From: Leucoraja erinacea
Lineage: Eukaryota
Assembly: GCF_028641065.1 (NCBI RefSeq)
Contig: NC_073405.1
Location: forward strand, 14,012,001 to 14,076,000
Direction of reading: 5' to 3'
DNA length: 64,000 nt
Below are positions 4,601 through 59,908 of the stretch, piece by piece. The number at the start of each line of letters is the position of its first letter. The first letter of the stretch is position 1. The notes beneath the pieces were generated by a model, which had not been told where the DNA came from, ran no database searches, and worked only from the letters and a program-made list of their open reading frames with translations. The position numbers and the translations under genes were made by a program.

Positions 4601-5853
4601 CCACCCCAGCGCATCGACTCACTGGGGAATGGGGGGAATGGGAGGAATGGACAACCATCCTGTGCTCTGGGGGAAGATGGTGATACAACTGATGGTGTCT
4701 CTGGGTCACTTCAGGGCAGTGGTCTTGCATCCACTGGTGTCACAGAAAGGTTTCATACAATTGATAGATTCCCTTCTCGAAATTGGTGGATCTCACTAGT
4801 CTTCATAGTGTCCAATAGATTCACAAGGGCATCTGACCATTTTAATGACATTATCAACGTCTGGTCACAATGTGTGCAGTTTTCCTAACTAATCCCCTCA
4901 TGATCTTATACACCTCTATAAGATCACTCCTCCTGCTCGCCAAGGAATAAAGTCCTAGTCTGCTCAACCTCTCCCCAAAGCTCAGGCCTTTGATTCCTGG
5001 CATCATATCTTCCCCGCACCCTTTCCAACTTAACAACATATTTCCTATAACAGGATGACCAAAACAGAACACAGAACAAAACAGAAAGCGTTAAGACCCC
5101 TTTCCCAATAGTATCAATAAGCTTGGAGGAGTGGGGTGGGGTTGGATGGGGTGAGGGACTGAGGGAAACCTTTCCCCAGAGGGTGGTGGGGTCTGGAACT
5201 CACTGTCCTACAGGGTGGGAGAGGCAGAGACGTGCACAGCTTCACACGGTACCTGGATAAACCTGAGGACCAAAGACCGCGTATGGGGTAGTGGGAATGG
5301 GCTGAGAGTCTCTCAACTCTCAACTGGAATGGAGCTTCAGGTGAAGAGCCGTTCCCTTTGTTTAAATTGTCGCTGATTCTACAAGCAATGAACCACAGTC
5401 CATGTAACGTAGGCGCTGCCAATTTGTACGCAGTAAACCCTCTCAATCAGGGTGGAGGCCGGGTAATCTGATCAACCTCCCATGTGCTCCAAGATAAACT
5501 CCTTCACTGTTCCCTTTACCACCAATTGTGGAGCCATCCACAAACCTACTTCCAAATTGTTAATACAAATAGTGAAGAACGGTGGACCCAGCAACGATCT
5601 CTGTGGTGCACCACGTGCTACTGGCCTCCAGTCTGAAAAACAATTCACGACCACAAACCCTCTGCATTCCTGCATTCAAGCCCACTTTGTATCCAATTGG
5701 CTAGCTCACCCCGAATCCCATGTGATAGAATAATAGTCGTGCATTCATACAGCACGGGAACAGGCCCATTGGCCCACTTGCCCATGCTGACCAAGATGCC
5801 CCATCTACACTAGTTCCACGTGCCTGTGCTTGGCCCATATCCCTCTGAACCTT

Positions 5854-6066
5854 GTGTTTAAGAAGGAACTGCAGATGTTGGAAAATCGAAGGTACACAAA
5901 TATGCTGGAGAAACTCAGTGAGTGCAGCAGCATCTATGGAGCGAAGGAAATAGGCAACGTTGCGGGCCGAAACCCTTTGGGTTTCGGCCCGAAACGTTGC
6001 CTATTTCCTTCGCTCCATAGATGCTGCTGCACCCGCTGAGTTTCTTCAGCATTTTTGTGCCCCGCG
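5854..6066. mobile_element. Fold-back (palindromic) non-autonomous Penelope-terminus element inserted in a CR1 tail
   Basis: Two inverted copies of the terminus meet at GAAACCC-TTT-GGGTTTC; TSD GAACCTT at 5847-5853 and 6067-6073. Confidence 0.75.
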
Positions 6067-7896
6067 GAACCTTTCCTATCCAAATGTATTTTAAATGTCG
6101 CTATAGTACCTGCCTCAACTACATGTTCATTCCATGCACCTACCACGGTTTGTGCAAAGAGGTTGCCCCTCAGGTTCCTGTTAAATCTTTCCCCTCTCAC
6201 GTTAAACCGATATCTTCTGGTTTTTGATTCCGCTACTCTAGGTAAAAGACTAGACATGTGATCTAACCTTCCAGACCAGCATACAATGTGGAACCTTACT
6301 AAGTCCCTGTAGTCTGATATACTGTAAGGCATAGATAGAGTCGACAGTCAGAAGCTTTTTCACAGAGTGGAACTGTCAAAGTCCGGAGGGGCATAGCTTT
6401 AAGAGTACAAGGGGCAAAGTCTAAAGGAGATGTGCGGGGCAGGTTTTTTTTGCACAGAGGGTGGAGGGTGTCTGGAAAGTGCTGCCATGGGTGGTGTTGG
6501 AGCCCCTCAGCCTGAAGAAGGGTCCCCACCCGAAGCGTCACCCATTCCTTCTCTCCAGAGATGCTGCCTTCCCACTGAGTTACTCCAGCTTTTTGTGGCC
6601 ACCGCAGTCAAATAGTTGAGACACAATTTCCCATGCACTAAGCCTTGCTGACTTTCCTCATATATAACCTTAATCAGTCCGTACCTTTCCAAATGTACCT
6701 AGATCCAACCCCTCAGAAACTCTTCCAATAATTGACCCACAAACTAATGTCAGGCTCAACGACTTGTACGTATTTCCCAGGCTTTTCCTTTCAGTCTTTC
6801 TTAAACAGAGCTGGAATGTTAGACATCATCAAGTCTTGTAGCATCTCACTCATGGCTATCGATGTTACAAATATCTCTGCCAGAGGCCTGGTAATGTCTT
6901 CTGTAGCTTCGAACCAAGGGACCAAATGACCTCAGCGATGTGGAGTGATCTCACCTGAAGAAATGGCTCACCGTGGAACAGAGGCAGTTAAAGCAGTTCA
7001 TTTACTGCTGAGTCCAACACTATGGGTGTTTCAATGAAGAAGGGTGTGGTGAAGTGGCAGGAGGTTCAGTGACAGAGGACATGGATTGAAGATAATTGGC
7101 AAAGGGATCAAAGGAGACCTGAGAAATTGGTCCTAACGCAGCGAGTTGCTCGGATGTGGACCCCACTGCTTGCAAGTAGGTAGGTCGGAATTAGCAAAGG
7201 GGAAATGTCTGTGTGCCCTGCCACAGACATCCCAACGTTGATTGCATCTGCCCTTCACGCTGCCTCGGGAAAACAACCAACACAATCAAAGAGTTAGAAG
7301 TTATGAATTGCAGGTGCTGGTTCGCACAAAAGGACACAAAGTGCTGGAGTAACTCAACGGGTCAGGCAAAAGGTCTCGACTCAGAATGTCACCACAGGGT
7401 GCCGACCCGAAAGATCACCAGAAGGATCCCGACCATATTCTCCGGAGATTCTGAATGACCCGCTGAGTTTCTCCAGCACTTTGTGTCCTTTTCAATTGAA
7501 GACAGCCCACCTCAGACATTCCTTCTTCTCCCTACTCCCATCCAACTGAAGGTACAGAAGCTTGTAAGCGCGCACCACCAGACTCAGGAACAGCTGGTGC
7601 CCCATTGTTACCAGGCCTCTAAATGACCCTCCCTTAAGATAGGATACTGTCTGATTCTCCTCGACCCCATTGCAGACATTGGACTTTGTCTCTGGAACTG
7701 TTGTTCTACAATGATGAGAATTATATTCTGCACTCCCTATATTTGCTCTCCCTATTGTAATTTAGATTGATTTGATTGAATTTATGTATTTCTGACCTGT
7801 TTGTATAGCATACAAAACAGGGGTGGGAGGGTTTTACATAGACAGGGAGGGGTGCAGGTTCTGGAGGGGATTACAGAGATAGATGAGTGTGGAGGT

Positions 7897-10599: not shown

Positions 10600-11560
10600 C
10601 AATTTGCAAACAAGGAAAATAGATCAATGGAGGACCCCATCTCTCTTACGCTATATTCAGCCCTGGATCACCTTTTCAAAAGCACACCAATGTCAGGATG
10701 CTATTCACTGACAACAGCTCAGCCTTCAACACCATTATACTAAATAAGATCATCCCTAATCTCCTTGAATTTGGCCTTTGGGTCTCTGTCTTCAACTGGC
10801 ACCACCCCACTCCCAACGCTGGTGCCCCTCAGCTTTGTGTGCTCAGTCCCTTGCTCAACGCCTTACACACCCATGACCATGTAGCCATGTACAATGCCAA
10901 CACAATCTTTAAATTTGGCAATGATAGCACAGTTGTTCGCCGGGTCGACGACAACAATGAGACAAAACACAGGAAAGAAACCAAGAACCTTGTGTCATGT
11001 TGTCAGGACAACAACCTAGCCATTAACGCCAGAAGAGTTGCTTGTTGACCAAAGGAAGTGAGGGGGTGTAAAGAATCCTATCAATATTAACAGAACTGCT
11101 TTAGAGATGGTCGAAAGCTTCACGTTCCCAGGCACCCATCTCACCAGCAAACTAACCTGGTCCCTTCTCACTGATACAGTAATGAAGAAAGTGTATCAAT
11201 GTATTTACTTGCTTGGCATCTGAGAAGATTTGGCATGTCCCTGAAGATTTTCTCAGAGTTCTACAGATGTGCTATAGAATGCATTCTGCCGGGATGCATC
11301 GCAGCCTAGTGAAGCAACAGCTCTGCTGTTGACCACTTGAACCTGCAGAGAGTGGTGAACGCAACCCAGTCCATCACAGGCTCGTCACTTCCTTCCATCC
11401 AGTCCATTTTCATGGTGCGGTGTCGCAGGAAGGATGGAGGTGTCGCCAAGGCTGCCCGACACCCTGGCAGTTCCTTTTTCTCTTCCACCTTCTGGGAGAG
11501 GAAAGCTTGAAAGCTTGGACGTTCAGACTTAAGAATAGCTTCTTCTTCACGGCATGGCTG
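10600..11560 (+). mobile_element. Rex1/Babar-type LINE RT fragment, decayed
   Basis: ORF 10698-11048: MLFTDNSSAFNTII...GAPQLCVLSPLLNALHTHD...FKFGNDSTVV. Confidence 0.8.
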
Positions 11561-11596
11561 CTGAACCCACCTCTTGCACACCACCTTCCCTGAGGT

Positions 11597-11824
11597 AGAC
11601 AAAAATGCTGGAGAAACTCAGCGGGTGCAGCAGCATCTATGGAGCGAAGGAAATAGGCAACGTTTCGGGCCAAAACCCTTCTTCAGACTAGCAACGTTTC
11701 GGGCCGAAACCCTTCTTCAGACCCCTCCCTACCTATGTTCAAGACACGTCAGACACTCTCCGTCGTCTCCGCGCATTACATTCTCTAGGCCCTCACCCCC
11801 CTCAAGAAAAAAAACGTTCTTAAA
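11597..11824 (-). mobile_element. Penelope-terminus element with two tandem hammerhead-like cores
   Basis: Minus strand reads CTGAAGAAGGGTTTCGGCCCGAAACGTTGC then TAGT-CTGAAGAAGGGTTTTGGCCCGAAACGTTGCC; 15-bp TSD CACCTTCCCTGAGGT at 11582-11596 and 11825-11839. Confidence 0.75.
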
Positions 11825-11899
11825 CACCTTCCCTGAGGTGCTGCCACATACTCTTACTCCGAACTATCTCATTTGGTTAATCCGTTGTTGTACTTACCG

Positions 11900-20689: not shown

Positions 20690-23150
20690 CAGATCACAGA
20701 GAGCTGGGGAAACTCTGTGGAGGGTAGCACAGGTCAGGCAGCATCTGTGCAAGAAGAAGAATGTAAAAACAAAGAACGGTAGATGATGTTTAATACACAA
20801 AAGGACATAAAGTGTTGGAGTAATTCAGCAGTTCAGGCAGCATCTGGAGAACATGAACAGCATCACTGGAGACTGATTGTAGAGGGCAGAACAAAGGTGG
20901 AAAAGGGGAGAGACAGGAGAGAGCGTACAGGTAATAGGAACAGAGGCAATGGATAAGAACAGAGGTGCGAGGCAGGATTGAAGAGGGGTGGATTGTGGAG
21001 CCGGGGTGGTAAGTAGCATGAGGAGAAGGGAGGTGTGGAGTCCAGATGGGGCACAGGGGAGAGCAGGAGGGGGGGGGGAGAGGGGGGGGGGGGGGGGGGG
21101 GGGGGGGCGTTTGAGGGAAAGAGCTTACCCAAAATTGGAGAATTCAATGTTTCGTAGGGTTACCTGTGGATGGAATATGATGTACAGTGCCACGGGTTTG
21201 CTTGCATCCTCACTCTGGCAATGGACGAGTCAAATCAAGTCTGCAATTTATCCCATCAGGTAAAGCATAAAAAGAAGTTTAATTTGACACCTAATTCACT
21301 TTTATATCTTCAGTCTTAAAAAAGTTATGGCCATTTTCATACTCGGAAATTAGCATCTTGTTCCCTGTTGCTTTTCCATTGACTTAATACAAAGGTTGTG
21401 ATCGAGGACAGTCAAAAGCCTGTAAGTTTTTGCTCTTCAAACCACGCATGACATGCCTTTCTGCCCATTACTTTCCCATTAAGAATGTCCTGTAGATCAT
21501 CATATTTGGAGTAGTCCAAATTCGGATAATCTCTGCAAATGCTGTCTAAATCAGTCTCTTTTGCTGGGCATTTGGATGGACAATTTTGCATTACTTCTTC
21601 GGAAACATCTGTTTAAAATGTAAAGGGGAAAAAAACACTGAACAGCATTAACAGAAACAAGTTATTATTTGCAGTTTTAGAAAAAAGGTAGAAATGATAA
21701 AGTTAAACGCTAAAACAAATAGTAAATACCCAACAAAAAATTCATATTCATCAGTTTCATCAAATCAATTAAATTAATCTAATCAATTAAATTAATCTAA
21801 ATTCTAGGTCTAAACATCTATCCATTTCTTTAAAAAATGTTTTTTTTTAATAGCCTAAGTTTCCAAATAACAAACTAATCCCATTCACACAAGAATTTAC
21901 AATATAACATGATTTTTAAATCTCACTGTCATTAACTTATATGCCAGACGGAAGAAATTTAATGTTTAATTCCCATAAATTAATCTAGAAACATCCACTC
22001 TCAATATAATCAAAATTATTGTTTTTTTGCACAATACATGTTGCTAAAACTGTTGTGGATATTTAGTATAAAAATATTGACTATGGATAGACAGTTACAA
22101 AAAATATAGACGATTTAGATGGTCTTATGACATGATTGTGGAAAAAAAAGAGGATTTAAATCACCTTGCGAGTGGGTGTTTCTGGAATGTGATCGATTGG
22201 AACGTTGCCGTTGCTGTGAATTTTAACCCCATATTTTGTGGCAGCAATGCAACATTGTGGATGCCGGCTGCCGTAAAACTCCAAAGAAGAAGAACCCCAT
22301 ATTAGCAGGCAAAGACACTGCCGGTTCGCATGGGGCCCAAATAACATTTTCGCGTTGTAAAATTAGATTAAAGCCACCCCAAGAAGCAAGATTATATGTG
22401 AAATATACGACATACCTTTTGTTTTGTCCTGATATTACGATCCGTCACGTTGTAGGCGTTGAGGGCGTTCGAAGTCACTTTTTACTTTAATCTAACTATT
22501 AAATTGTCCAGCGATTTTTTAATTAAAAAAACCGGGAACGGAAGTCAGATCGATTTTTCTTCACTGACTAGCAGCCCGAGAAAATCCCTCTCTGACAAGT
22601 GATACAAACCTGCATTTTAATCCCCCCCCCCCACCCCCCCACCCCCTCTCATAGGCGCCAAAGTCACGCACACAGCCAGTGGCAGAACTGCAGCGCCGTT
22701 GAAGTTAGGTTTTGTAACATCGCTACAGTAGGCCTTGGCGGACCGAGCACATGTTCAACGAAACAGTCGCCGAGTGCACGCTTTATCCCGACAATGTAAC
22801 AAGGGGGCAGTAGATGAGGTTGGAGGAGGTGCATGTGAACCTCTGCCTCACGTGGAAGGGCTGCTGGGGTCCATGGATTGAGGTGAGGGAGGAGTATAGA
22901 GACAGGTGATACATCTCCTGCGGTTGCAGTGAAAAGTACCTGGGGAGGAGGTGGTTTGGAATGGAAGGGGTGAGCGAAGTGAGTGGTCTTAGCGGAAGGC
23001 AGAAAGGGGTGGAGCCATGAATCATGGTGGGATCCCGTTGGGGGTGACTGAACGGTCGGAGGATGATGTGTTGAGTGTGAGGCTGGTGGGGTGAAAGGTG
23101 AAGACCAGGGGAACTCTATCCTTGTTCTGTCTAGGGCGAGGAGGGGCGAG
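20690..23150 (-). mobile_element. Decayed Penelope-like element split by a 1.5-kb AT-rich insertion
   Basis: ORF 22783-23025 contains SIHGPQQPFHVRQRFTCTSSNLIYC (GIY-YIG N-terminus); C-terminal EN remnant at 21120-21228; terminus motif near 20700-20860. Confidence 0.7.
21230..22722. mobile_element. Unclassified non-coding AT-rich insertion (probable non-autonomous DNA element)
   Basis: Sharp compositional shift; interrupts collinear Penelope halves; no recognisable ORF or TIR pair. Confidence 0.5.
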
Positions 23151-23219: not shown

Positions 23220-24150
23220 GGTCCTCGATTCCCCTATTCTGGGCAAGAGATTTTGTGCATCTACCCGATATATTCCTCTCATGATTTTATACACCTCTAT
23301 AAGATCACCCTTTATCCTCCTGCGCTCCAAGGAATAGAGACCCAGCCTACTCAACCTCTCCCTATAGCAACAGCCTCGTAAATCTTCTCTGAACCCTTTC
23401 AGGCTTGACAATATCTTTCGTATAACATCGTGCCCAAAACTGAACACAATACTCTAAATGCATTCTCACCAACGTCTTATACAACTGCAACATGACCTCC
23501 CGACTTCTATGTGTAGGAAAGAACTGCAGATGCTGGTTTAAATCAAAGGTAGACACAAAATGCCGGAGTAACTCAACAGGACAAGCATCATCTCTGGAGA
23601 TGCTGCCCGCCCCACTGAGTTACTCCAGCATTTTATGTCTACCTCCCAACTTCTATACTCAATACTTTGGCTGATGAAGGCCAATGTGCCAAAAACCTTT
23701 TTGACCACCTTATCTACCTGTGACTCAACCTTCAAGGAACCATGCACCTGCACTCCTAGATTTCTCTGCACTACAACACTCCCCAGAGGCCTACCATTTA
23801 CTATGTAGGTCCTACCCTTGTTAGACGTCCCAAAATGCAACACCTCGCATTTCTCTGTATTAAATTCCATCAACCATTCCTCAGCCCACGTGGCCAATCG
23901 ATCAAGATCCTGCTGCAATCTTTCACCACCATCTTCACTATCTGCCAAACCACCCACTTTTGTATCATCAGCAAACTTGCTAATCTTGCCCTGTATGTTC
24001 TCATCCAAATCATTGATGTAGATGACAAACAGTAACGGGCCCAGCACCGAACCCTGAGGCCCACCACTAGTCCCAGGCTTGCAGTCCGAGAAGCAACCTT
24101 CCACCATCACCCTCTGCTTCCTTCCATTAAGCCAATTTGCTATCCATTCA
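23220..24150 (-). mobile_element. CR1 LINE RT fragment
   Basis: ORF 23538-24110: GPQGSVLGPLLFVIYINDLD...SKFADDTKVGG...LQQDLDRL. Confidence 0.9.
23511..23640. mobile_element. Short fold-back Penelope-terminus element nested in CR1
   Basis: TSD ACCTCCC(G/A)ACTTCTAT at 23495-23510 and 23641-23656; inverted arms. Confidence 0.75.
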
Positions 24151-24637
24151 GCTATCTTTCCTTGGAGAGATATCGAGGGGGGAGGTAAAGCAACAAGTGT
24201 AGCATCTCCTGCGGTTGCAAGGGAAAGTGCCCGGGGAGGGGCTGGTTCGTGCGGAAAGGGAAGAATTGACCTTTCCTTGAAGGGTTGATCTTTCCTTGGA
24301 TCCTGGTAAATCTTTTCTGAAGTCTTTCAAACGACATCTTTCCTAAAACATTGTGACCAAAACTGAACACAATACTCTAAATGTGGCGTCACCAACGCCT
24401 TATATAACAGTAAAATGGCCTGCCATCTTCTATACTCAATACTCTGACTGATGAAGGCCAATGTGTCGGAAAGCCTTCTTAACCAGTTCCCTGAAAGTGG
24501 TATCACATGTGGATAAGATGCCGATTCTGAGCCGGATCCCCAGATGAATCTCCATCTGCCTTGTGCGTGGACACAGCACTAGTTGCTCAGAATGTGTTCA
24601 TTTCTCAGCCAACAAACGTTGTTCCCTCTGTGAAAGT

Positions 24638-26120: not shown

Positions 26121-26273
26121 GTAGACACAGCAAACCTCACTATTATTTAACCAGGAAATTACAAAACACTCCGTGCAGACTGTTATTTCGGTCTTCGGCA
26201 CCATTTCACGGGTTAACTCAAACCACTGCGGTCCACGCAGCATCTCTGGAGAACTGGAGATTGATAGATTCTT

Positions 26274-26439
26274 GTGTTTAAGAAGGAACTGCAGATGCTG
26301 GAAAATCGAAGGTACACAAAAAAGCTGGAGGAACTCAGCGGGTGCAGCAGCATCTATGGAGCGAAGGAAATAGGCAACGTTTCGGGCCGAAACCCTTGGG
26401 TGCTGCACCCGCTGAGTTTCTCCAGCTTTTTTGTGTACC
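26274..26439. mobile_element. Asymmetric fold-back Penelope-terminus element
   Basis: 14-bp TSD ATTGATAGATTCTT at 26260-26273 and 26440-26453. Confidence 0.8.
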
Positions 26440-27439
26440 ATTGATAGATTCTTAATTAGTAGGGGTGTCGGGTTGTGGGGGGAATGCACGAGAAATGGGT
26501 TGAGAGGGAAAGACAGGTCAACCACGGAGTAGACGATGGGCCGAATGGTCTAATCCTGTTCCTAGAACTTATGAAAAAGGATGGGCGACGTCTGAGCAAG
26601 GGCCCCGATCTGAAACGTCGCCTCTCCATTTTCTCAGGCGATGCTGCCTGGCCCACTGTTACTCCAGCACCGTGTGTCTATCTATCCACAGTGACTGTTC
26701 CTCGCTGGTAAATCAAATGTAAAGCCCAAGGTAAACGCTCTGCGCACTCTCTTCATCAGTCACGATGGGGGTAACATGGAATGACGCACCTTATGCACAG
26801 CCCAAAGGCCATTCGGCCCATCAGACGGGGACATGCCGTAGGGTCAGTTCTCTCCTTAGTCCCATCACGTTATTCGTCCAGCTCGCCCACCCATCACTCC
26901 CATGACCGACTACCCTTCCCTTACAGATTTCTCAACGTTATTGGAAATACGAACATTTGTCTTTAACCCGTCCCCACCGACATACACACACATAACCCAG
27001 TTTAGTTTATTGTCACGTGTGCCGAGGTACAGTGAACAGCTTTTGTTTCGTGCTATTCAGGCAACAGAAAGACAATATGTGATTCCAATCGAGCCGTTTA
27101 CAGTGAAAAGATACATGATGAGGGAATGATATTTAGTACAAGGTGAAGCCAGCGGAGTCCGATCAAGGGTAGCCCGGGGGCCATCAAAGAGGTAGATAGT
27201 AGTTCAGTTCTGCTCTCTGGTTGTGGGAGGATGATTCAGGTACCTGATTACAGCTGGGAAGAAACTGTCCGTGAATCCCCGTTCCCCACCACGTCGATAT
27301 CACTCCTTGTTTTTGAGACCATCCACCCCATCTCTGGCACCGGGGCTTTGGAGCCGGAGCGCAGAAACCTCTCTCTCCCCCTTCAAAGGTGTTGGCCGGA
27401 CTGGGAGACAGTCCCTGTCCCTGCGCTCCGCTCTCCCAC

Positions 27440-30180: not shown

Positions 30181-31303
30181 CTATTTGGTCCACGTCCTAT
30201 CCGCGATGTTGCCTTCAGTCTGTCCATCTCTCTCTCTCTCTCACCTTCACTAATTCTCTGTCTCTCAACTTTGACAGCGTCTTGGACCTGAAGCATTAAC
30301 CGCGGGTCTCTCTCCACCAAAGCTCTCCACAGATGCTGCCCCATCTGTTCAGTCTTTTCTGCTGTTTTTAGATTTCCAGAAACTGCAGGATAATTTGACT
30401 TTCCTTTACTTTTGTTTTCGACCAAAGGTAAGTCTTGAAGAATTCCTTGAGACAGAGGGATGGAGAGGTTCAGGAGGAGGATTCCAAGTGGAGCCCGGCA
30501 GCGCTGCCATTGACAGAACAGTTATAGAGAGAGGCACACCACCAGTCACAGATCTCCAGTCCAAAAGGCAACTTTCCGCCATCACCCTCGGTTACCGACC
30601 ATTAAACCAAGTCCATTCAGCTCTCTTCCCTGGATCCCTTGGGATCTAAACTTTCAGAGCAGCGGAACCTAGTCGGATGCCTTGCTGGAATCCATATACA
30701 CGTCTTCAGCTCTGCATTCTTTCATCGACTTTTTTGGCCACATCATCAAAGAACTCAATCAGATTCGTGAAAAAACTGTCAAAACCATGCTGACTATCCC
30801 TAATCAGCCCTTGTCCATCTGAATGCATGTATATCCTATCCCTCTAGTAACTTTCCAACCACAGATGTTAAGTTCACTGGCCTGTAGTTCCCAACCTTTA
30901 CCCTGCAGCTCCTCTTGAATAAAGGCACATTTGCCATCCTCCAGCCACCCGCCTGTATTTAATGACGAAAAGTAAATCTCAGCCAGGGCTCCTAAAATGT
31001 ATTTAGCTTCCCAGTGTCCTCGGACGTATCAGTTAAAGTGGTTTGAAGGGCTGAGGAGATTGCAACATTGACGTGAGGCTACAGAATAACGTTATAAGGT
31101 CAGGAACCTATGTAGCTCACTCATGTGAAAAGAAAAGATTATGGAATGAAAACTCAGGAGTTCCTGGATTTCCCCCTTTTTACAGGGTCTGACGACCCTC
31201 TAGTTAAATCAGTGACTCTCCACAGCTGTAGCCTGGTCCAACAACTTCTCCAGCATCGTTGGTCTTTAGATTTTGACTGTTTCCATTTTCTCCTCCACTC
31301 CAG

Positions 31304-31389
31304 GGCTGGTTGGCTTCTCCTCAACAGCCGATCCTCTCGACATCTGGCTCTCACTGCATTCTGCCTGGGCGTCATCGTGTACCTGGCAG
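31304..31389 (+). CDS. TMEM221: TMEM221 coding exon 2
   Basis: RAGWLLLNSRSSRHLALTAFCLGVIVYLA (human [29 protein letters not shown]); pyrimidine tract-CAG acceptor and CAG|GTAAGT donor; phases fit. Confidence 0.93.
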
Positions 31390-33212
31390 GTAAGTACAGA
31401 GATGTGGAGCACCAGTTCCTTCTCCTGCAGACACTGGCTGTACTGTTGGCCATGGCTCGGAACTCGGGCTTGTGCCCCTAATCCGTGGGGGGGTGGGGGG
31501 TGTTTAGATATGAGGTGAGAGGAGATTCAAAAGTTACCTGAAGGCTAACTTTTTCCACACAGAGGGTGGTGCTTACATGGGATGAGCTGCCAGAAGAATT
31601 GGTAAAGGCAGGTACAATGACATATTCAGAAGTCATTTGAGCACGTAGATGGACAGGAAAGGTTTGCAAGGATATGAGCCAGGTGCAGGCAAGTGGGACT
31701 AGCTTGTTTTGGCAACTTGGTTGGAACAGACAGAATGGCCAATTTCTGTGCAATTTGACAAGACGCTAATCAATATCAAATCCAATGAAAATTTCCTTGT
31801 GCCTTTTGTGTGGGATGCTGCTGTGTGGTCTGCCTGCCATCTGGCAATGGAATGCTGGCATGAGGCTCTCAGGTTAAACTCCCAGTGAGAAGCTGGGCTG
31901 TGCTTCTGTCCTGGACCTTCTCGTTAACCATTATGGGGTGTGCAGCAGATCACTCTCACTCGTAGGGCGTGAGTGTCACAGATGTTGATGTTAGTAACGC
32001 CTCCAACTGCCCTGGATACCAAATGGGTCACTGGGCATGAGAGGTCAGATGAAGATAAACCAGACTGTTCATGGGCTCAGACAGATGGGGTTGGGATGAA
32101 GTGGTTCACTGACCATGGTCTGAACTTGTTCCATGATCACCGGACCAGTTTGGCAACATTACCATCACATTTGTACATCCTCCCCATGAACATTTTCCGG
32201 GTGCGCCAATATCTACCCACACTCCAAAGACGTATAGGTTTTGTAGGCTAATCAGATTAAGTAAAAATTGTAAATTTTCGCTAGTGTAAAGGATAGTGTT
32301 AAGTGTACAGGGATAACTGGTCGGTGCGAACTCAGTGGGCCAAAGGGCCTGTATCTTTAATTTAAAACTAAATTACTTAATCCCCAACGCCCCATGCGTC
32401 ACCCGCAAAGGCAGTGAAACTTGCCAAACCAGCTCACTACTTTCTATCCATTTATTTACCACAGTTAATGCATGCCCACCAAAACCACACAGAGTTCTCA
32501 GGCACTGGCCAGATCGAGCCCTCGTCACAGAATGGCCCAAACCGCATCCCGAGGCAGGAGGAGTTTCAAGCAGTGCAGCCGTGAGATCACACACCGAGGC
32601 TAGAGTCTTTTTTTACTGTGCTTTCAGTTATCGTGAGGAGGGTCTTGATGGAAACTGGGACCAAATGTCCTCTGTGCACAATCTTCTTTATCACAGATAA
32701 CAGCGGGCAGGCGAGCTCTCGCCCCGTCAGTGTGCAACATGTCTTGGATAGAGAACCAAGGAACAGCTTGAGTGCAGGAGTGGTACAGCTTTAGTGGAAT
32801 AAACTCTTCAGCATTGTCACAAAGTGCTGATGAAACAAGTTCTACCAGGGGCAGCTCCGAGTGCCCGTGTGGGAACGCACATGCATACGCAAGTACACAA
32901 ATGCATGTGTACACATATGCAAATGCGTACACACACACACAACCAGCTCTGTCACCTCTCCGATCTCCTCAGAACCTCGCAGTGTCTGATGCGGTTGGTT
33001 CGCATGGGCTGGGGTGAGCTTGACGGCCATTGTTCACTGAATACACCATCCAACACTGTGGAGAAACCAAAGCAGACGTCAGCCTTGCTGGGTTAGAGTG
33101 TTGCCCCCACTCACCGTCAGTGGGGCAACATCCTGCCAGGTCAGCCACTGACCCCGAAAGGCCAGAGGTCCCTGGTTTGCTTCCTGCTCCCTACCAACAG
33201 GTGCAACATGAC

Positions 33213-33610
33213 ATTGAGGGGGGATCTTATAGAAACCTACAAAATTCTTAAGGGGTTGGACAGGCTAGATGCAGGAAGATTGTTCCCGATGTTGGGGAAG
33301 TCCAGGACAAGGGGTCACAGCTTAAGGATAGAGGGGAAATTCTTTAGGACTGAGATGAGAAAAACATTTTTCACACAGAGAGTGGTGAATCTCTGGAACT
33401 CTGTGCCACAGAAGATAGTTGAGGCCAGTTCATTGGCTATATTTAAGAGGGAGTTAGATGTGGCCCTTGTGGATAAAGGGATCAGGGGGTATGGAGAGAA
33501 GGCAGGTACGGGATACTGAGTTGGATGATCAGCCATGATCATATTGAATGGCGGTGCAGGCTTGAAGGGCCGAATTGCCTACTCCTGCACCTATTTTCTA
33601 TGTATCTATG
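33213..33610 (+). mobile_element. CR1 LINE 3' end, well preserved
   Basis: ORF 33208-33519 LRGDLIETYKILKGLDRLDAGRLFP...FFTQRVVNLWNS; TTTCTATG tail. Confidence 0.9.
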
Positions 33611-34479
33611 ACATGAGGCCTCAATGCCATCGAGCTGGGTGGGGGAAGATGGACTCGGCAAGTGTGCACGGCTCTGGGGGAAAAAGCATGTCTAGGGAAC
33701 CATTAGAGAGCTTCACCAGACCATTCAGAACCCATGGCTGAATGTTCTGCTGCATGTATCGTTCTAAATGTTGGTGATGGGGCAATGCCTGGCCAACTTA
33801 ATGTCACGAGGGGCCACAGTGGGTGTGGGAGGTAGGAGGAAGTTGGAACATTGCTGCTCCTTTTACTCAGCCCCGTCACAGTAGTATTCAACTGTGCATT
33901 GGACTGGGTTGATCTAACCAGATGCCAAGAGTAAGGCAGGCTTGACAAGGGCACCGGTCTATTCTCCTTTGGAAGGGGACTGACCTTGAATTTGTGTTCT
34001 TCAGATCGTTGGGAATTAATGTACAAATCAAAACTTGCTTCCACAAGTTGGAAGCTCTCTCTCCAGTGCTTCTGAAGATGGAAACACTGGCCAAGGAACC
34101 GGAGGGGGGTTGGGGAGACCAGCGTGCGATGGAACACGCTGCCTGTGAGGGCAGTGGAAGCAGATTGAATGGAAGCTTGCAATAAGGAATGGATAAATGC
34201 TTGAACGACAGAGCGGATGGAAAGCCTGGGTCCACAATCAGCTCCAGAAGAGCGTGGACTGATGGTCATTGTCAGCATGATCCCATTCCAATCCATCAAT
34301 ACGCAGGAATTGCTACAGTTCTGAGGTGCCCATGCAGGTGGTAGATTACACCAGTGTGTAGTGAGACCATGATCTGCCTATCCCCTCACTGACTCTGTGT
34401 AACAGACAGCAAGGCTGCTCTGAACTACAATATACCATGGAAACAAACCCGTGTGTCAGGGAGGAAGCTGCAGTTTGCA

Positions 34480-35400
34480 GTTCAGTGGCTCTGCTGCCTG
34501 TTAGCTACAAGACACAAGTCCATAATCCGGGCGAGGGATGTATGCAGACGCAGCTCTTGATGGATTGCACGGAGCGATGGGAGCTGCCGATGGACTGCAT
34601 GTGGAGCAGTCGGGATATGGAAAGTGTAGTGGACGGGACGTTTAGTGAGCTGGTCACCCCGCAGGTGCAGAGAGAGCGGGGATATCGGTGTCCACCAGGA
34701 AGGGCTGTCAGGGCAAGTAGTGCAGATGTTTGGTTGGGTCCCCTAACAGATACACCATGTTCGGGACTGTTTGAGACGGGGAAGGGAGTGGTCTCCCGCC
34801 CTCCCAGACACACAGCTTGTGGCACTGCAGTGGGTGTTGCTGTACGGAGGGAAGGGGAACAGGACTGGGAGAACGAGAGTGGTTGGGAGTCTATCAAAGG
34901 GCAGGCAGATAGAAGACTCTGGTTTGGTGCATTGCTTCCCTGGTGCTGGGGTCAAGGATGTCTCAGAGTGGCTGCAAGATGTTTTGATGGGGTAGGGCGA
35001 ATAGTCAGCAGTTGTGGTCCATAGTGGTACCAGCGACATGTGTAGGGGAAGGCATGAGGCCCTGCACCATGTGTTTGGGCAGCCAGGTAGCCATTTTTAC
35101 CAGCAGGACCTCAAAGCCTGTAATCTGTGGATTGCTTCCACTGCAACACTATAGATTTCAGGGTAGAGAGCAGTGAATCCTGAAGCATTTCGACATTATG
35201 AAGGATAGGTGCTGGCAGTCTTTAATGCATTAAGGTGGATGGAACCCAATGTCTGACCAGGTATATCCTAGGATGATGTGAGAAGCAGGGAGATTGCTGA
35301 GACCCTGGCAGATATTGTTGTACCTTTGTTAGACAGAGGTGAGGTACTGGGAGGGTGGCGAATATTCTTATTTTAAGAAAGGCAGCAACAAGCCACTGGG
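34480..35400 (+). mobile_element. Old CR1 relic including ORF1 SGNH-esterase region
   Basis: VHCFPGAGVKDVSEWLQDVL followed by VVVHSGTSD-like block; upstream ESVVDGTFSELVTPQV. Confidence 0.6.
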
Positions 35401-36519
35401 CACAAGTTGGATCAGTGGCCTGTTTCCAAGCTGTAGAGTTATTTGAACATCATCTCAATGGATCCAGGAGTGAAATCCTCCATTTCAAGCACAGACAATG
35501 TAACTTTTGCTAGAGAAATGATATAAAACGCTGTGTGTGGCCCAATGATTCTTCTGCCTGGCATCTGCACAGGAATAGACCACTCAGTCCTTCAAGCCAG
35601 ATCTGCTAAACCGTTAGATCACACAAGATCTGCACTTTAACTTCAGCCACCCATGTTGTTCCCATAATCCTCAATCCCACCCCCCAACATTGATCAGTCG
35701 TGGCTGAAATCTTACTTGGATCTCCAGGTTCATCAGCACCTTGGAATAGCACAGGATATCATATTTCCACATCTTGACATCACCCCCTTAATAATAAAAC
35801 ATTGGGATGTGTAGGATCAGAGTAAATGGGTGGTTGATGGGCCAAGGGACTATGTCTCTATGACTGCGATTCGCCTCTTTGTTCTAGATGCCTCTTCTTC
35901 CTCCTCCAAAAGAGCAAGCAGTTTGCCTTTCCACTCATTAAATACCTTCAACCACCTTCATCGGAAAACACCGATAATGCTAAATAACAAGGGTCTGATG
36001 GGCATAAGGGTTGTGCAACAAACCCGTCAGCTCCTATTGCATGCTGGAGGCTCCTTCCCTCACATCACTCGGCCCCTCACCTCCAACCCCTCTCTTCCAG
36101 GCGCACAGCCCTAAATTGCGTCTGCCACAAAACAACCCCACCCTCGATTGTTGTTACCAGAGACCTGTCTTGCATTGCAAGACCCATCCTCATCGGGGAA
36201 GTGGATGGCCAGTACAGAACGTCAGGTTGGCCCTGCCACGTATCTTGAGTCAGACAGCATCCCACCCCCAATGCTCCTCTTCTACCCACAAAGATAGAGC
36301 TCTTGGGTCACCAACAAAGTGCCAGCATTTCCCATCATCTGTGGGCATTCTCAGACTTGACATCAACTCCAAAATATAACACCAGCTCCAGGAATTGTTT
36401 TTGTCAGGGGGAACTTGGCATCACAATATACGCTGACAACAAATACGCCACAGCTTACCCATTATTTGTGAATATTATGTTGCAGATGGAGAGGGCTTCA
36501 TTTTCCGTGAGGGAGATTG

Positions 36520-36835
36520 CTGTGACATGCAAAAGGAGTTTTACTCCGACTAATCCCTGTGTTTTGCCTGGGAGCGTGTGATGGGACAGAGTGGGGGAGC
36601 TTTACTGTGTACCTGCCCTGGACGTGATGGGACTTAGAGGAAGCTTTACTCTTATGTCTAACCCATGCTCTCCTTGCCCTGGAGAGTCCCCTATACTGGA
36701 GCCAAACTGTCCCCCTGCCCTGGGAGTGTGCGATGGGACAGTGCAGAGGGAGCTTTACTCCATGTCCATCCTATTCTGTCCCTGACCTGGGAGTGTGCAA
36801 TGGGATAATATAAGGGGAGCTTTATTGGGAGTGTT
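36520..36835 (+). repeat. Degenerate minisatellite (CTGGGAGTGTGYGATGGGACAGTGYAGAGGGAGCTTTACTC unit)
   Basis: Several imperfect copies; same family at 62860-63090. Confidence 0.7.
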
Positions 36836-36982
36836 GGACAGGATCGTTTATTCTCAAGTGTTGATGAATGAACCCGGGAAAGTTTAACACGTGTCAAATG
36901 TGAACTCCAGTGCTAGTGTGTCGTGCTGTGTTTCCTTTGCCTCTGTGCACTACATGTGGAGATTGTTTGCTTCCCCCGTCAG

Positions 36983-37467
36983 CTCTCTGCATCCACGTGC
37001 TGCTGGAGTTTGAGAAGGAGAGTGCGATAGCAAGTGCCAGTGTCCTTGGTGCTGGAGCGCTGGCAGCAGCCACCATTGTGGTGCATGCGCTGGTGAAGGC
37101 TTGCCGAGTGGACGGGCAGGGTGGTCCCGAGCATGCTGCCACCCTCTTCGAGAACAGCTGCCCCTCTCGAGGCAGGTACCTGGATCCCGAGCGTTTGGAC
37201 CAGGCAGAGGAAGAGGACTCATCGCGCATGCCTGCCTTCCACAAGGAGACAGCCTACGAGCGATACCGGGAGCAAAAGGCCTTCTACGTGGCTACTTCGG
37301 CCAGCCGCAATGGGTATGGGCGATCCCGGGCTCAGCATGCTGCCCGCACTCTCCCCGCTGCCCGCACCTTGCCCCCCGCCGGATCCTGGGACGGAGTCTC
37401 CCACGAAATGAGGCGGGTGCTGGCACGCAAGGGGACTGTTTGCAGGAGGGACTCGACGCTGGTCTGA
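36983..37467 (+). CDS. TMEM221: TMEM221 coding exon 3 (terminal)
   Basis: ALCIHVLLEFEKESAIASASVLGAG...WDGVSHEMRRVL...RDSTLV* matches the human C-terminus WDGVTHEMRRML...KDSTLV. Confidence 0.95.
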
Positions 37468-40646: not shown

Positions 40647-42867
40647 CTGTAAAAGGAGAAAGATGTATTGCTTGGCACACATGCAGACCGTCCCATCTCA
40701 AGGTCAATTTCACTGGCTGCTTTAGGCTCACAGAAGCTACTAATTCGCAATTTTATCAATTTCAATTCGATATATGTCATTAAAGTAATATATGACCTGC
40801 ACCCACAGTAATTGAAATAATTTAAGAGATTGTTCAAGATAGGCGGTAAGGTGGGAGATCTGCATGAGTCAAAGTATTATTCATGACTTAGCAGCGATCA
40901 AGGCTGCTTTGGCACCAGGCCAGCTTGTGCTCCTGGTATCAGCAATACTAACCTGGAAAGGGAGGGGTGCACGCTTGGCTCTGCACTCAGGAAGAAGAGA
41001 AGGAGGGAAGTTCAGGAACTGCCTGTGTAACAACGGAACTGTAACAGACACGCACATCACTAAAGCTGCATGCAGCGATGGGTGAAGAAAAATATAAGAT
41101 GGAAAAATGCAACGTAAACTGTGGAGTACTGAGGGTTCATAACAACAGTGGAGCAAGGGATTGACTCTGCAATATGTGTCCAACGAGTCGGCCTGAGAAC
41201 AGGCAATGGACATGCAGCAAGACCATAACCATTGGCATTGAATAATTTCCCTTGGATCCCACCACTCGAGATCCAGTGTACCAGTTGTGCAAGACCTAAC
41301 ATATGGCATGTGTGGTTTTCAACATGTAAAGGTGGCTTTGGGGAAGAGTTTCCTAGAGCTGCCAAACAGAGGAGTTTCCATCATGCACAGAATGGGAAGG
41401 CTTTCAGCAAAAAAAAACAATGTACTGGAGAAAGTCAGTATCTGTGGAGGGAATGGACAGATGATATTTCAGGTCATGAACCTTCTTCAGATCAGCCTGA
41501 AGGAAGGACCCCACACAAAATATCACCTACTCATTTTCTCTACAGATGCTACCTGACCTGCTGAGTTCCTCCAGCCTCTGCAGTCTTGTCTCTTTAAGAG
41601 TGAGCTTTCAGCTGGTGTCCCGACTGACAGCTGGCCCTCAACTTCATGCCCTTCCGCCTGAGCCCTAGCTTCATTTATTCAGAGTCCCAGCGTAGCTATA
41701 TAGCTTGAATAGCTTGTTTTGTTTTCTTGAATTTTTTTTAATGTTTGTTTATTATATTATCAGTACTGCGTTAACAAACCTAGTTTGCTGTTGCAATTAA
41801 GAATTTCTTGTTCCGTTTTGGTTCATATGACGATAAAATACTCTTCACTATTTTGATTCTTGATGGAGGTAGGTGGTGCCGTGGTCACCAAAACATGAGA
41901 GGCTGCAGATCAAATGCTAGTCAATGGGATTAGTGTGGTTGGGTACGATGGTCAGCATGGGTGTAATGGGCTGAACGGCCTGTTTCCGTGCTGTATGACT
42001 GTGCTCAAGCAGTTGTGTGGATATGGGGTAGAGGAAGATGATGTCATGGAGAATGCAGATGTCAACACACACATGAAAAGACTGCCAAATTCTGTTGCAA
42101 TGGACACTCAGTACTCAACAGAACTAGAACACAGGTACAAGAAAAATACCAAAATTCAAATATCAAACTAAACACTCCCCCCGGGGGTTTCATTAAATCA
42201 GCACATCACCATTCATTATATTTGAATCTGGCATTTCTTTATCCCTCATTGAAAATCAAATGAATTCTCCACCCCTCCTGAGAAGTACATTCACGTCTGG
42301 AACTCACTCATTTTTAGTCGATATTGATAGGAAGGCGCAGCTAGAGCAAATCGCCACGGCAACACCCTTCCCATTACGTTTGGGCAAAATGTAGCAGCCC
42401 GACAGATGGGTGGGAATGCCATCCTGCGACCACTCATGGCGGGGAAACAGCAGCAGGAGGCGCTGAATGTGGGAGGACTTATGGGGGCCATACGCTCTCC
42501 ATCCAGCATCAACCACCCATCCATACCCCGTGCCAAGTCTCACAAAGGACTTTGGCCACAACAGAACCAAATGAATTGCAGTGAACGTATCCATTCGATT
42601 TTCCTATTTCCACCGTTAAGTTGCAATAAGACCAGCTAGCACCATGAACTGAATTTCTGAGACAAAGTGGTCATGTTCACAGGCGGGCATTTCCAATGGC
42701 AAGTCTAACCTCCCTGCAAGGACGGGACAGGCCTGATGTGCTGTTTTTAATGGCTCCCCCAACATCACCCGAGCACAATGAGTGAACTCAAACCACAGGA
42801 ATGGGGTGAGGCGGGGCGGGGAAGGGAGGGTGGGCACACCAAGCAGAACCTAAGGCCCTCGCAGTAC

Positions 42868-44380: not shown

Positions 44381-45466
44381 AGCAAGTCAATGTGTTCATT
44401 TGGTTGCAGGCAATTAGTCATAATGTCACAGATGGGAGACAGGCCCTTTGGCTCAAGTTATCCATGCTGACCAAGATGCCTTATCTCAGCTTGTCCCATT
44501 TGTTCATTTTAAGCTCATACCTCACTCCACATTTCCAAATACATTTTAAATGTTGTTCATGTACTTGCCTCAACTATTTCCTCTGGCAGCTCAATACATA
44601 TACCCACCACCCTCTGTGCAAAGAAGTTGCCCCAGGTTCCTTTTAAATCATTCTCCAATCACAAACCTATGACATGTCTTTTTTGATATCCCTTCCCTGG
44701 AAGAAGACTGCATTCAACTTACCTTTGTCCCTCATGAGTTTATACACGTCTCTAAGAATACCCCGAGGTCTCCGATGCTCCAAGGAATAAAAAGTTAGTC
44801 TGACCAACCTCTTCCTGTAGTTCAAGCCCACGAGTCCTGGCAACATGCTTGTAAATCTTCCCTGCACATTTTCTTCTAACAATATGACATATTTTTCAGT
44901 GCCCAAAACTGTACACAATATTCCAAGCATGACCTCACTAGCGTGTTGTACAAATGTGACATGACGCCCTAAAGTTTATACTCAATCCCCTTAATGATAA
45001 TACCAGTATGCCAAAGGCCTCCTTCACTACCCTGTCAATCTGAGGTGGCATTTTCAGGGAGCTATATGCTTGTTCCCCAAGATCCCTCTGCTCCACAACG
45101 CTCCTCAGGGCCCTGCCATTCAGTGCGAGGTCCTGACCTCATTTGACTTCCCAAAATGCAAGACCTGAGACATTTAAATTAAACTGCATTTGCCATCCCT
45201 CAGCCCACTTGCCCAGCCTGCCAGGTTTGGTTTGGGTTCATCCTCCACAGTGGGTGTATAAATAGTTGAAGGCCTGTGTAGATCTGGAACGAGGAAGTGG
45301 TAATGAGGAAGAGAAATGAAGACGAGAAATAGAGGTAATCAGGAGTGAGGTGGGGGTGGCATTGGCAAGGAAGGGTGGAGAGGAGCGGGTGTGGTCGTTT
45401 CTGACAGGATCGGCAAAAGTAAGGTTACACTGAAGCCAAGGATTCGGCAGCGCTCAGTCCCCTCAC

Positions 45467-45579: not shown

Positions 45580-45698
45580 CTGATAATAACAGGGATTTAG
45601 ACCCGGGGTGGTTCGGGGGGTGGGTGGGGAGAATGACAGCGGTTGGAAGAGGAGGAGGCCTCGGCGGGGAGAGAGACGAAGGGGGGGGGGTTCTCCTG

Positions 45699-46200: not shown

Positions 46201-46539
46201 GTCGCCAACAAAGATCTTTGGTCGCCGCCGCCTGAAGTGTCCGCCGCTCCACATCCCCCGAAGTCACGGAGCCGAGATGCGGGTTCCGATCTTTGGTTCC
46301 GCCGCAGTCGGAAGGTTGGAAGCAAAGAAGGGTGTTTGGTGGGATGTGGGCGGCACCAGTACTCAAGCAAAGATTACAGAGGAGCTCCTCTAGGATCCAA
46401 GTGTCGCCCGGCGGGTGTGCAGCCTCCGAAGCCCCCGATCCGGCAGCAACGGCGAGAACACAGAACTGTGCAGCAGAGCTTCAGCCCACAATGTCTGTGC
46501 CGCACATAATGTCAACTATTATCTGTCAACACATAACCT

Positions 46540-47855
46540 ACCTATTCTTTAGGGAACGGAGGTTCCCCTCTTCGACTATAGATGAGGCTCTCACCAGGGT
46601 CTCCTCTATATTCCGTAGCTCCGCTCTCACTCCCCATCCCCCCACTGGCAACAAGGACAGAGTCCCCCTTGTCCTCACCTTCCACCCAACCAGCCGTCAC
46701 ATACAACAAATAATCCTCCAACATTTTCGCCTCCTCCAACGGGATCCCACCACTGGCCACATCTTCCCATCTTCTCCCCTTTCGGCTTTCCGCGGAAACT
46801 CCCGGGTCAATTCGTCCCTTTCCACCCAAACCATCCTCTCCCCTGGTACTTTCCCTTGCAACCGCAGGAAATGCGACACTTGTCGCTTTACCTCCCCCCT
46901 CGACTCCGTCCAAGGAGCCAGCAGTCTTTCCAGATGAGGCAGAGGTCAGGGCCGGCCTTAAACCAATTGGACCAATTGCTCCCAATTGGGACCCGCGCTA
47001 AATTTCCGTATTTCATACGGAAATGCAATACAAATACGGAAATACGAATTAGCGTTGTTAAATACGGATTTTCTTTTTAAAACATTGTGTTGTTAAATAC
47101 GAAGTTTTTAAAAAACAACCATGGATAATCGTTAAGTGTCACCCGCTGCACTGGCCATGAGATGAAAACGATTTGTTAACTACCACTGTTAGCACTTGTT
47201 AACAGCCAGTAGTTAACATGTGGTTATACAATGTGTCATCAGTACATCGATCCACATTCCTCAGAAAATGTAATTGTGTTCTTACTAAGTATTAATGATG
47301 CCCGCGTTCCTTTGAATAAAATTCACTGGAGTCCCAACCTCATCTATTGCATCTGCTGTTGTAGGTGTCAACTGCTCTACATCGGTGAGACCAAGCACAT
47401 GCTTGCAATAGCTTCGCCCAATATCTCCACTCAGTTTGCATTATCCAATCTGATCTCCTGGTGGCTCAGCACTTCAACTCCCCCTCCCATTTCGAATCTG
47501 ACCTTTCTGGCCTGGGCTTCTTCCATGGCCAGAGTGAGTCCCACCGGAAATTGGAGGAGCGACACCTCATATTTCGCTTGGATAGTTTTCACCTTAGTGG
47601 TATGAACATTGACTTCTCCAATTTCAGATAGTCCTTGATTTCTCCCTCCTTCCCAGCTCTCCCACAGCCTACTGTCTCCGCCTCTTCCTTTCTTCTTCCC
47701 ACCCCACCCCACCCCCCCACATCAGTCTGAAGAAGGGTCTCGACCTGAAAAGTCACCTATTCCTTCGCTCCATAGACACTGCCTCACCTGCTGAGTTTCT
47801 CCAGCATTTTTGTCTACCTTCGATTTTACCAGCATCTACAGTTCTTTCTTAAACA
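46540..47855 (+). mobile_element. 5'-truncated Penelope-like retroelement (linker, Cys-rich finger, GIY-YIG endonuclease, 3' terminus with hammerhead-like motif)
   Basis: FFRERRFPSSTIDEAL...RVPLVLTFHP...GTFPCNRRKCDTC and NLIYCICCCRCQLLYIGETK; 3' end CTGAAGAAGGGTCTCGACCTGAAAAGTCACC...CTTAAAC. Confidence 0.88.
46947..47330. mobile_element. hAT-like DNA transposon fragment nested in Penelope
   Basis: Starts CAGGGCCGGCCTTA (hAT-type terminus; similar CAGGGCCGGATTTA at ~15671); interrupts Penelope just before NLIYC; second TIR not seen. Confidence 0.5.
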
Positions 47856-49404
47856 TAACCTACCTATATCCCTCCATTCCCTGCACTTCCATGTGCCTAT
47901 CAAAAACCCTCTTGTAACACCACTATCGCATCTGCCTCCACCACCATCCATAGCAGCGCTTTCCAGCCTCTATGAAAAGAAAGTTGCCTTGCACAAATCC
48001 TTTAAACTTTACCCCTCTCATCTTGTATGAATGCTCTCTAGACTTTGACATTTCCACCATGGGGAAAGGGTTCTGATTGTCTAGCCTACCTAAGCCTTTC
48101 ATAATTTTATATACTATCACGTTTTTAGTGTCAGCTGCTTACTTGCGAATCAAATTTTAAAGCCACACTAAAGTAGGACATTTTGTAGACAGTGAAGATG
48201 ATTATGAAAAATTACAGCCGGATCTTGAGGCAAGTGCATTGAGGAAGGGTGAATGGAGTAAAATGCAGATAAGTGCATAAAACGTTCACAGTGATGGCAG
48301 GGACCTGGAGAGTGTGGTGGAGAGGGATCTAGGAGTGCAGGTACATAGTTCCTTGAATGTGGTGTCACAGGCAGATGGCATGATGGGACTGATCACATGT
48401 CGTGACAACGAAGGTGGTGGGATTTCTAGAAATGCAAGAAAAAGAGGAACAATATTTAATTAGAACAGGCAACTGAACCATCCTCTCACCAGCTGGAGAG
48501 CAGTCCTGACTTCCCATCTACCTCATTGGAGACCTTTGAACTATTTTAAATTGGATTTTATTGGACTTTATCTTGCACTAAATGTTATATCCTTTATCCT
48601 GTATCTACATTGTGGATGTGCAGGAAGGAACTGCAGATGCTGGTTTAAACCGAAGATAAACACAAAATGCTGGAGTAACTCAGCGATCCAGGCAGCATCT
48701 CTGGAGAGAAGGAAAGGGTGATGTTTTGGGTCGAGACCCTTCTTCAGGAGATGACTTGATTGTAAACATGTATAGTCTCTTCACTGACTGGATCGCACGC
48801 AACAAAATGCTTGACAACAATAAACTACGTGGCAATAATAATAAACTAAACTAAGCCTATATATACACACACTGAACTTTTTTTCCTCATTATTGTACTG
48901 TTTACATATGTATACATATTCTGTTGTGCTGCTGCAAGTAAGAATTTTGTTCTTCTAACTGGGACATATGACAATAAAACACTCTTGCATCTTGACTATT
49001 TATCATTACAGTATGTACACTGTTTATTTTGTGAGCCTTTGTGTGAACAAGAAATGTAATTGCTTTTCGGTGTAGGTGACAATAATCTAATCAGAATCTG
49101 AGGAGTGAAATCAGAAAAAAGGAATAACCAGATCTGGAAATAAACTGTGCAGTTGGGGTGGACTAGGGTTTTTTGGGTTTGAGTATCGAGGATTTTTAAG
49201 CAAAGGCATGATAATCATGTTGGTCACATTTCAGACAGGTTGTTTTCTCTGGAACGTTGGAGGTTGCGAGTGGACCTGATAGAGGTATATAAAATTATGA
49301 AAGGCATAGGGTAGATAGTCATAACCTTTTACCCAGGAAGGAAATATCAAACACTAGAGGGCATAGTGTTAACATAAGGCAAGAAAGGCAAAGTATAAAG
49401 GAGA

Positions 49405-59870: not shown

Positions 59871-59908
59871 TGCATCCTCCAAACTCAGAACATGCCGAAG
59901 AATTAATG

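Follow-up and report, generated by a model that had tools for sequence, protein, structure and literature searches.

A doubled minimal hammerhead core in a Penelope-like insertion, probably of Neptune type and garbled by template switching

Penelope-like elements (PLEs) leave insertions of a recognizable form. The typical insertion contains an inverted copy and carries a tail of 30–40 bp at one end (PMC8557442, PMC3846280). In the Poseidon element of Anolis, according to the available part of PMC11167929, the tail spans the interval that separates two RT start sites; cutting and extension take place on both target strands. Overlap with the target at the priming sites is dispensable in vitro in that system. 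The function of the hammerhead that PLEs carry is called unclear (PMC8557442). Hammerhead cleavage was dispensable in vitro for the Anolis element, and no RNA ends were found at the cleavage site (PMC11167929).

The hammerheads of metazoan PLEs are minimal ones (min-HHRs), and the locus described here has much in common with them as they appear in the available part of PMC4209133. Both contain the CUGANGA and GAAA boxes and an NUH triplet, which is GUU here. Both have an extra base between positions 9 and 10.1, the pair G10.1–C11.1 and a palindromic 15.2–16.2, and both lack loop 3. Both also lie in the PLE pLTR and are mass-dispersed as truncated singles.

The locus is part of a 64-kb stretch of DNA, the whole of which was analysed (the window). 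An initial annotation had reported two hammerhead cores 34 nt apart on the minus strand, each with the palindromic AACGUU, had taken them for Penelope-type minimal hammerheads, and had placed them inside an insertion bounded by a 15-bp TSD. Each of these observations was reproduced. The cores, CUGAAGA...GAAA, begin at 11720 (core 1) and 11686 (core 2); the two copies, 11691–11722 and 11657–11688, comprise 32 nt each, are 97% alike and have a spacing of 34, and both contain AACGUU. The core boxes, the extra 9/10.1 base and the position in the pLTR fit the Penelope type. TRF reports the doubled core as a repeat of period 34 with 1.9 copies, and Rfam at gathering thresholds has no match in the window.

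The insertion is real but ordinary, and it is dead; minimal hammerheads, tails and inverted arms of PLEs have already been published. We think it rather probable that all of the sequence between the TSDs comes from the Neptune-type PLE family, as one garbled insertion in which both strands were primed and several jumps took place. It seems equally probable that the insertion is a non-coding fragment whose doubled core arose by accident and has no selected function.

The insertion and its relatives in the window

The direct repeat that encloses the insertion is exact over 15 bp and extends no further. No third copy with two or fewer mismatches occurs on either strand of the whole 64-kb window. 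Exact 15-mer pairs 100–400 apart were seen in one of 20 shuffled windows. The 15-bp TSD is real and goes beyond chance. Between its two copies the locus has the textbook Penelope layout, in which a tail-less arm is inverted with respect to a tail-bearing arm (Table 1).

Table 1. Features of the insertion, its target site and the longest related element in the window
Feature	Position	Strand	Remarks
Old, disrupted LINE-type ORF, 3' end (host site, outside the insertion)	10623..11581	+	RVT_1 E=5e-4, under the Pfam cut-off
Left TSD copy	11582..11596	+	15 bp; last 4 nt (11593-11596) are also the element's internal start site
Arm 1: 3' part of the pLTR, without tail, from an abundant Neptune-type PLE; includes core 2	11593..11688	-
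Core 2	C3 at 11686	-	cleavage predicted at 11659/11658
Inter-core junction	11689..11690	.	2 nt; not explained by perfect slippage
Core 1, second 32-nt core copy	11691..11722	-	C3 at 11720
Filler: putative RT coding fragment of a Neptune-type PLE	11723..11803	+	in frame from 11725
Probable collapsed third core, arm 2	11801..11818	+	halves 7/8 and 7/7; post hoc
3' terminus of the element, where the 36-nt tail ends	11817..11827	+	last 3 nt common with TSD, first 2 with collapsed core
Right TSD copy	11825..11839	+	exact repeat
5'-truncated Neptune-type PLE: linker, CxxC, GIY-YIG, older pLTR, hammerhead, tail	46530..47856	+	tblastn E=3e-25

The pLTR gives 28 alignments within the 64 kb, and a 751-nt stretch is matched by 58,075–96,727 contigs in each of the four runs. 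The 3' ends of the copies in the window fall into two classes, internal and tail-end, 36 nt apart. The two classes match the two RT start sites and the extension of both target strands reported for Anolis Poseidon (PMC11167929). The layout of the locus is that of two other insertions. At 26260–26453 the order is TSD, tail-less antisense arm, tail-bearing sense arm, TSD, with an exact TSD of 14 bp; at 5852–6058 it is the same, with a degenerate TSD of 14 bp. From the locus it can be seen how an RT with two start sites, acting on two target strands, would yield both the inverted layout and the one-sided tail. The insertions at 26260–26453 and 5852–6058 are both young, and the arms of the latter meet at 5978 as a near-perfect palindrome. 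Older inverted pLTR pairs lie at about 7333–7487, 23509–23644, 41433–41575 and 51657–51802.

Arm 1 is 93–96% identical to four young copies (92/96, 90/96, 84/88 and 82/88) and 86% identical (83/96) to an older one. To the left of 11593, about 900–1000 contigs per run diverge from the stretch. Core 1 has the majority form at the sole position at which the two core copies differ (contig row 11672) and is 100% identical to the copies at 24947 and 57622; in loop II the other core copy carries a CpG-type transition relative to that form. The remnant terminus that the initial annotation had pointed out, TTCTTAAAC, is indeed derived from the element. It proves to be the genuine 3' end of family members; four tail-bearing copies terminate in it (5864, 26284, 60723 and 47846). 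At the locus it stands on the plus strand, opposite to the minus-strand cores, and belongs to arm 2, the tail-bearing arm, of which colinear scraps, about 105 nt in all, are left here.

One contig of run X1 crosses the junction 11749–11857 with no differences, so this junction is not an assembly artefact. Among the contigs listed, none spans the core–core or the core–filler junction. Contigs of X1 and X17, which carry two organism labels, reach from the left flank 18–20 nt beyond the TSD into the element, an overrun that falls short of the 31-nt bridging standard, and the right-flank contigs of all four runs are 0–2 letters off the window. Taken together, these flanks indicate that the insertion is probably common to close relatives. 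No empty or uncollapsed site appears among the 15 listed of 235 joints, a count that carries no evidential weight. No host exon was identified near the insertion. Elsewhere in the window, host exons match Jiraiya (31116–37467, plus strand), BORCS8 (45428–45697, minus strand) and ribosomal L34 (56915–57199, minus strand).

The pLTR family of arm 1 can be tied to a coding element in the window, since an older copy at 47727 closes a CxxC–GIY-YIG remnant. The translation of this element (46530–47856) matches the Neptune1_Ap row of the available PMC8557442 supplement by eye. It is broken by an unrelated insert at about 46945–47325, and further PLE body fragments occur at 22807–23126, 24159–24271, 55901–56067 and 59112–59357. 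The only protein relative of the PLE remnant, one of five candidates in a search with the EN end, is the little-skate protein P0006, which is 65% identical and has no RT. Together with the host exons, which mark the window as vertebrate DNA, this relative points to a skate or ray. P0006 is an annotated protein in which a DUF4518 N-terminus is fused to a Neptune CxxC–GIY-YIG C-terminus; it is probably an exonised or mis-annotated PLE piece. A protein search with the linker region returned 338 candidates, none of which scored. Family pattern scans gave no match in metagenome, viral or prokaryote genome contigs, related-locus scans with P0006 yielded 2 and 55 candidates of which not one was confirmed, and plasmid blastn found no match.

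As for the 5' limits of the copies, 20 of the 28 pLTR alignments start between −8 and +10 from the first C of the core, and none starts at the predicted cut (+29). It is at the 5' edge of the hammerhead, not at its cleavage point, that the pLTR copies end, a clustering that is partly an effect of alignment ends. The window also contains a tandem array of an older pLTR at 59908–60385 (144-nt unit, 2.3 copies, 95% alike) together with an inverted tail-bearing copy. Its units have a degenerate core, with C at position 9 and GUG at the triplet, and are predicted to be inactive. This array is nearer to a retrozyme-like array than the doubled core at 11657–11722 is.

Identity of the filler

The initial annotation had described the sequence between core 1 and the terminus as unrelated to the element, and this view has to be given up. 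The filler comprises 94 nt (11723–11816), with a high-copy repeat within it at 11740–11791; its right boundary is approximate, the contig cover fading in the bin 11792–11817. In run X1 its depth is 420,607 and 260,548, compared with 14–35 in single-copy flank bins, and in each of the four public runs its cover is 10^3–10^4 times that of the flanks. These values are summed contig depths, which are not copy numbers, and were taken from four of 24 runs (X1, X3, X15 and X17), the runs of small share being left out. The filler very probably belongs to the element family, though not to the pLTR that adjoins the core; in a broad sense this is the outcome that the initial annotation had named as refuting its view. 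Between X17 and the runs X1, X3 and X15 the cover of flanks and pLTR is similar, but the RT-fragment subfamily of the filler (11763–11771) is about 7–9 times shallower in X17, a hint of lineage-specific bursts in the recent past.

The plus-strand frame that opens at 11725 translates as LPTYVQDT.... Thirteen X17 contigs run past 11723 with one common sequence (agreement 0.9), which is not hammerhead and which, translated by hand in the filler frame, reads DSKISPLVK. In the available supplement of PMC8557442, the zebrafish Neptune row (DreriNep1) has DYFIKPIVKD and then LPSYIQDT, right before the first RT catalytic motif, DxxSLYT. Matched by eye, 7 of 18 residues are identical between the filler and this row, and the Poseidon and Penelope rows fit less well. 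The pattern LP[ST]Y[IV][QR]DT occurs once in the six frames of the 64 kb, at 11725; the chance of its falling inside the filler is about 1e-7 for a motif picked post hoc. From this likeness, the filler is very probably a piece of a Neptune-type RT from just before the first catalytic motif.

No database search assigned the filler. The filler has no significant match in the rest of the window, no Pfam match, no usable match in the Atlas and none in the PDB. A protein search with its frame returned two candidates, neither of which scored. Phmmer found no RT relative, and its only four matches, all to unrelated, internally repetitive proteins, were rejected. That no search tool confirmed the RT assignment is attributed to the length of 26 residues and to the lack of such proteins in reach. 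Two other origins were considered and set aside. Untemplated synthesis is ruled out by the contig cover. A native sequence upstream of the core is contradicted by the older subfamily, which continues differently, and by the X17 contigs, which extend into the RT-like frame.

Origin of the doubled core and of the scrambled arm

Perfect DNA slippage is ruled out for the doubled core, because the two junction nucleotides neither precede the first copy nor follow the last. Both core copies share their stop with the copies at 24947 and 57622, down to the base, which points to re-priming after the usual stop of the RT. The 34-nt repeat is most likely a re-priming accident of reverse transcription. 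Re-priming at the native overlap requires the loss of 1 nt. In contigs of the other runs there are joints from the core end back into 11646–11654 with 1–2 extra letters, which are a hint only and may run on the same strand or be inverted.

A third core, collapsed, is probably present in arm 2. The segment 11801–11818, noticed post hoc, aligns to the left half (7/8) and the right half (7/7) of the core, helix II being replaced by three A; it ends at the cleavage-site U and has 2 nt in common with the terminus. Among 858 rearrangements of the 13-nt spacer, nine match the right side as well as the actual one and one matches both sides; for uniform random spacers the values are 4.7% and 0.27%. The spacer is A-rich, and its best match to a nearby template is a 7-mer, at chance level. 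Its first 5 nt are the reverse complement of the terminus, for which a snap-back origin is possible. The four pieces of arm 2 stand in the order of the parent; the stretches missing between them measure about 90 nt, 13 nt and roughly 1.3 kb, the last estimated from a published alignment. If the collapsed core is real, four scraps in parent order are better accounted for by serial jumps on one RNA than by a single later deletion.

Based on these junctions, the following path is proposed. The top strand would prime at the internal site, with an overlap of 4 nt with the target, and synthesis would copy the pLTR to the usual stop of the family just 5' of the core. The RT would then re-prime 2–5 nt beyond the cleavage site and copy the core again, giving the 34-nt repeat. 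The bottom strand would prime at the tail end with a 3-nt overlap and copy 8 nt, after which the RT may have jumped to the region of the cleavage site on a 2-nt overlap, then stuttered along the run of A and left out helix II. A further jump of roughly 1.3 kb upstream would bring it into the RT region, where about 80 nt would be copied. The arms would then be joined, possibly through a 2-nt overlap. Template switching, one of the two causes suggested initially, is thus the likely cause of the garbled insertion; the other, transduction, does not agree with a filler that appears to be an RT piece.

The initial annotation had further suggested that the two cores could pair with each other, as in a dimeric fold. 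In the swapped min-HHR dimer, each ribozyme requires helix I (PMC4209133). A linker of only 6 nt separates U17 of core 1 from C3 of core 2, and from it the second ribozyme can form a helix I of 1 bp plus a 4-nt loop, so a dimer with two active sites is excluded geometrically. A fold with one site can still be drawn on paper, by combining core 1 with site 2 through 4-bp helices I, II and III, the 5' strand of helix I being supplied by accidental antisense RT sequence. In a crude model the one-site fold lies 11–14 kcal/mol and the two-site fold 21 kcal/mol above a 14–15-bp hairpin between the cores. The ordinary monomer trans-dimer lies 15.5 kcal/mol above its own MFE in the same model, so the folding penalty does not discriminate. 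Since a trans-dimer is penalised to this extent and the Anolis ribozyme needs protein, weak cleavage at one site may still occur. The probability of helix II is 0.000 in the tandem compared with 0.02–0.06 in monomers, and the fold of the tandem is not unusual among shuffles (z=−1.6). The doubled core is predicted to be cut poorly or not at all, and at most at the downstream site. We consider it very improbable that the tandem works as a cis-dimer ribozyme and was selected as such, with a retrozyme-like unit of 34 nt. Both cores retain every core base and AACGUU, one combination can be drawn with three 4-bp helices, and min-HHR dimers cut weakly in vitro (PMC4209133), but a second ribozyme held to a 1-bp helix I, the energies and helix II probabilities given above, and the accidental origin of the helix I strand all speak against selection. 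Moreover, only one such tandem is found among the 28 pLTR alignments in the window, and its unit is shorter than the 51-bp minimum of non-LTR retrozymes in the available text of bioRxiv 10.64898/2026.07.22.740005.

Three other explanations bear on the filler and on arm 2. PLEs can take up host DNA (PMC3846280), and the filler is without a match in the window; a transduced or captured host sequence is nevertheless hardly credible, being effectively refuted by the high copy number of the filler in all four runs and by its RT-like frame. It is also unlikely, though less so, that the locus began as a canonical inverted insertion whose sense arm spanned about 1.6 kb, from the RT to the tail, and that a deletion between the inverted pLTRs collapsed it later; in this case repair would have left filler at the joint, and the core repeat would be a separate event. 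Microhomology-mediated deletions disable many Penelope copies (PMC3846280), arm 2 starts and ends as expected of a 5'-truncated copy, and the A-rich spacer opens with the 5-nt inverse of the terminus. A single deletion leaves a single junction, however, and arm 2 has three colinear ones if the collapsed core is real; the perfect TSD and arms 93–96% like young copies also allow little time. A quite doubtful reading, finally, takes the 3' end of the 5' product of hammerhead cleavage as the acceptor of the jumps, so that the junctions would be a fossil of self-cleavage in vivo. The arm-2 jump lands, with a 2-nt overlap, at core position 28, where the 5' product has its last base, arm 1 re-enters 2 nt from the cleavage site, and the skipped helix II suggests a folded core. 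Against this, random spacers contain a 7-nt pLTR match in 1% of cases when the composition is kept and in 4.7% when it is uniform, no pLTR alignment of the 28 begins at the cut, and six young arms read through it. In vitro the substrate is mainly uncleaved RNA, and none of the Anolis reads ends at the site (PMC11167929). Folding of a pLTR domain is another way in which the terminus could come close, though the signal for it is weak (z=−0.57).

Serial template switching is the reading that we retain. The landing at the cleavage site could be meaningful, as a single case recognized post hoc in sequence. No published description of such cleavage-site junctions was found in a search that covered mostly the literature outside subscription journals. 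Junction positions in garbled insertions offer a genome-only test of hammerhead cutting by PLEs in vivo. If the fossil reading is true, the junctions over hundreds of thousands of copies would tell whether the hammerheads cut during transposition.

Comparison with described systems

The locus departs from described min-HHRs in its spacing and perhaps in the length of its helices. As given in the available part of PMC4209133, min-HHRs usually have a helix I of 4–5 bp and often a helix II of 7–8 bp; the corresponding helices are 2–3 bp (native) and 4 bp at the locus. A variant in D. virilis also has a helix I of 2 bp (PMC4209133). Unlike described min-HHRs, the locus has a 4-bp helix II closed by a UUCG loop, with which a self-palindrome of equal energy competes, and its GUU triplet is a further difference. 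Its cores are 34 nt apart, whereas min-HHR pairs are separated by 100 bp to 3 kb (PMC4209133).

Non-LTR retrozymes (PMC7229834; bioRxiv 10.64898/2026.07.22.740005), in the text available, resemble the locus in their adjacent type I hammerheads and PLE origin. Their units measure 51–972 bp and each contains a complete hammerhead, while the unit here is 34 nt in 1.9 copies (bioRxiv 10.64898/2026.07.22.740005). In contrast to retrozymes, the locus has no payload between its cores and no room for helix I, and it occurs once in the window. The sequence captured in Adineta Pen1/Pen3a is unique host sequence, whereas the filler is high-copy and RT-like.

With the Neptune clade of EN+ PLEs (PMC8557442 supplement, available part) the locus shares the RT block before the first catalytic motif, and the copy at 46.5–47.9 kb, of the older subfamily, shares the CxxC linker followed by GIY-YIG. 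The locus differs from Neptune elements in having no full-length ORF, and its clade was set by eye.

Compared with the two other inverted copies in the window, which have no target overlap at the tail end, the locus has short target overlaps at both priming sites. Its tail-bearing arm, unlike that of typical inverted PLE insertions, consists of about 105 nt of scraps that include the RT piece. With the inverted-repeat PLE insertions described in the available parts of PMC8557442 (Figure 2) and PMC3846280 it has in common the TSD, the inverted tail-less arm, the tail, which is 36 nt here, and the 5' truncation.
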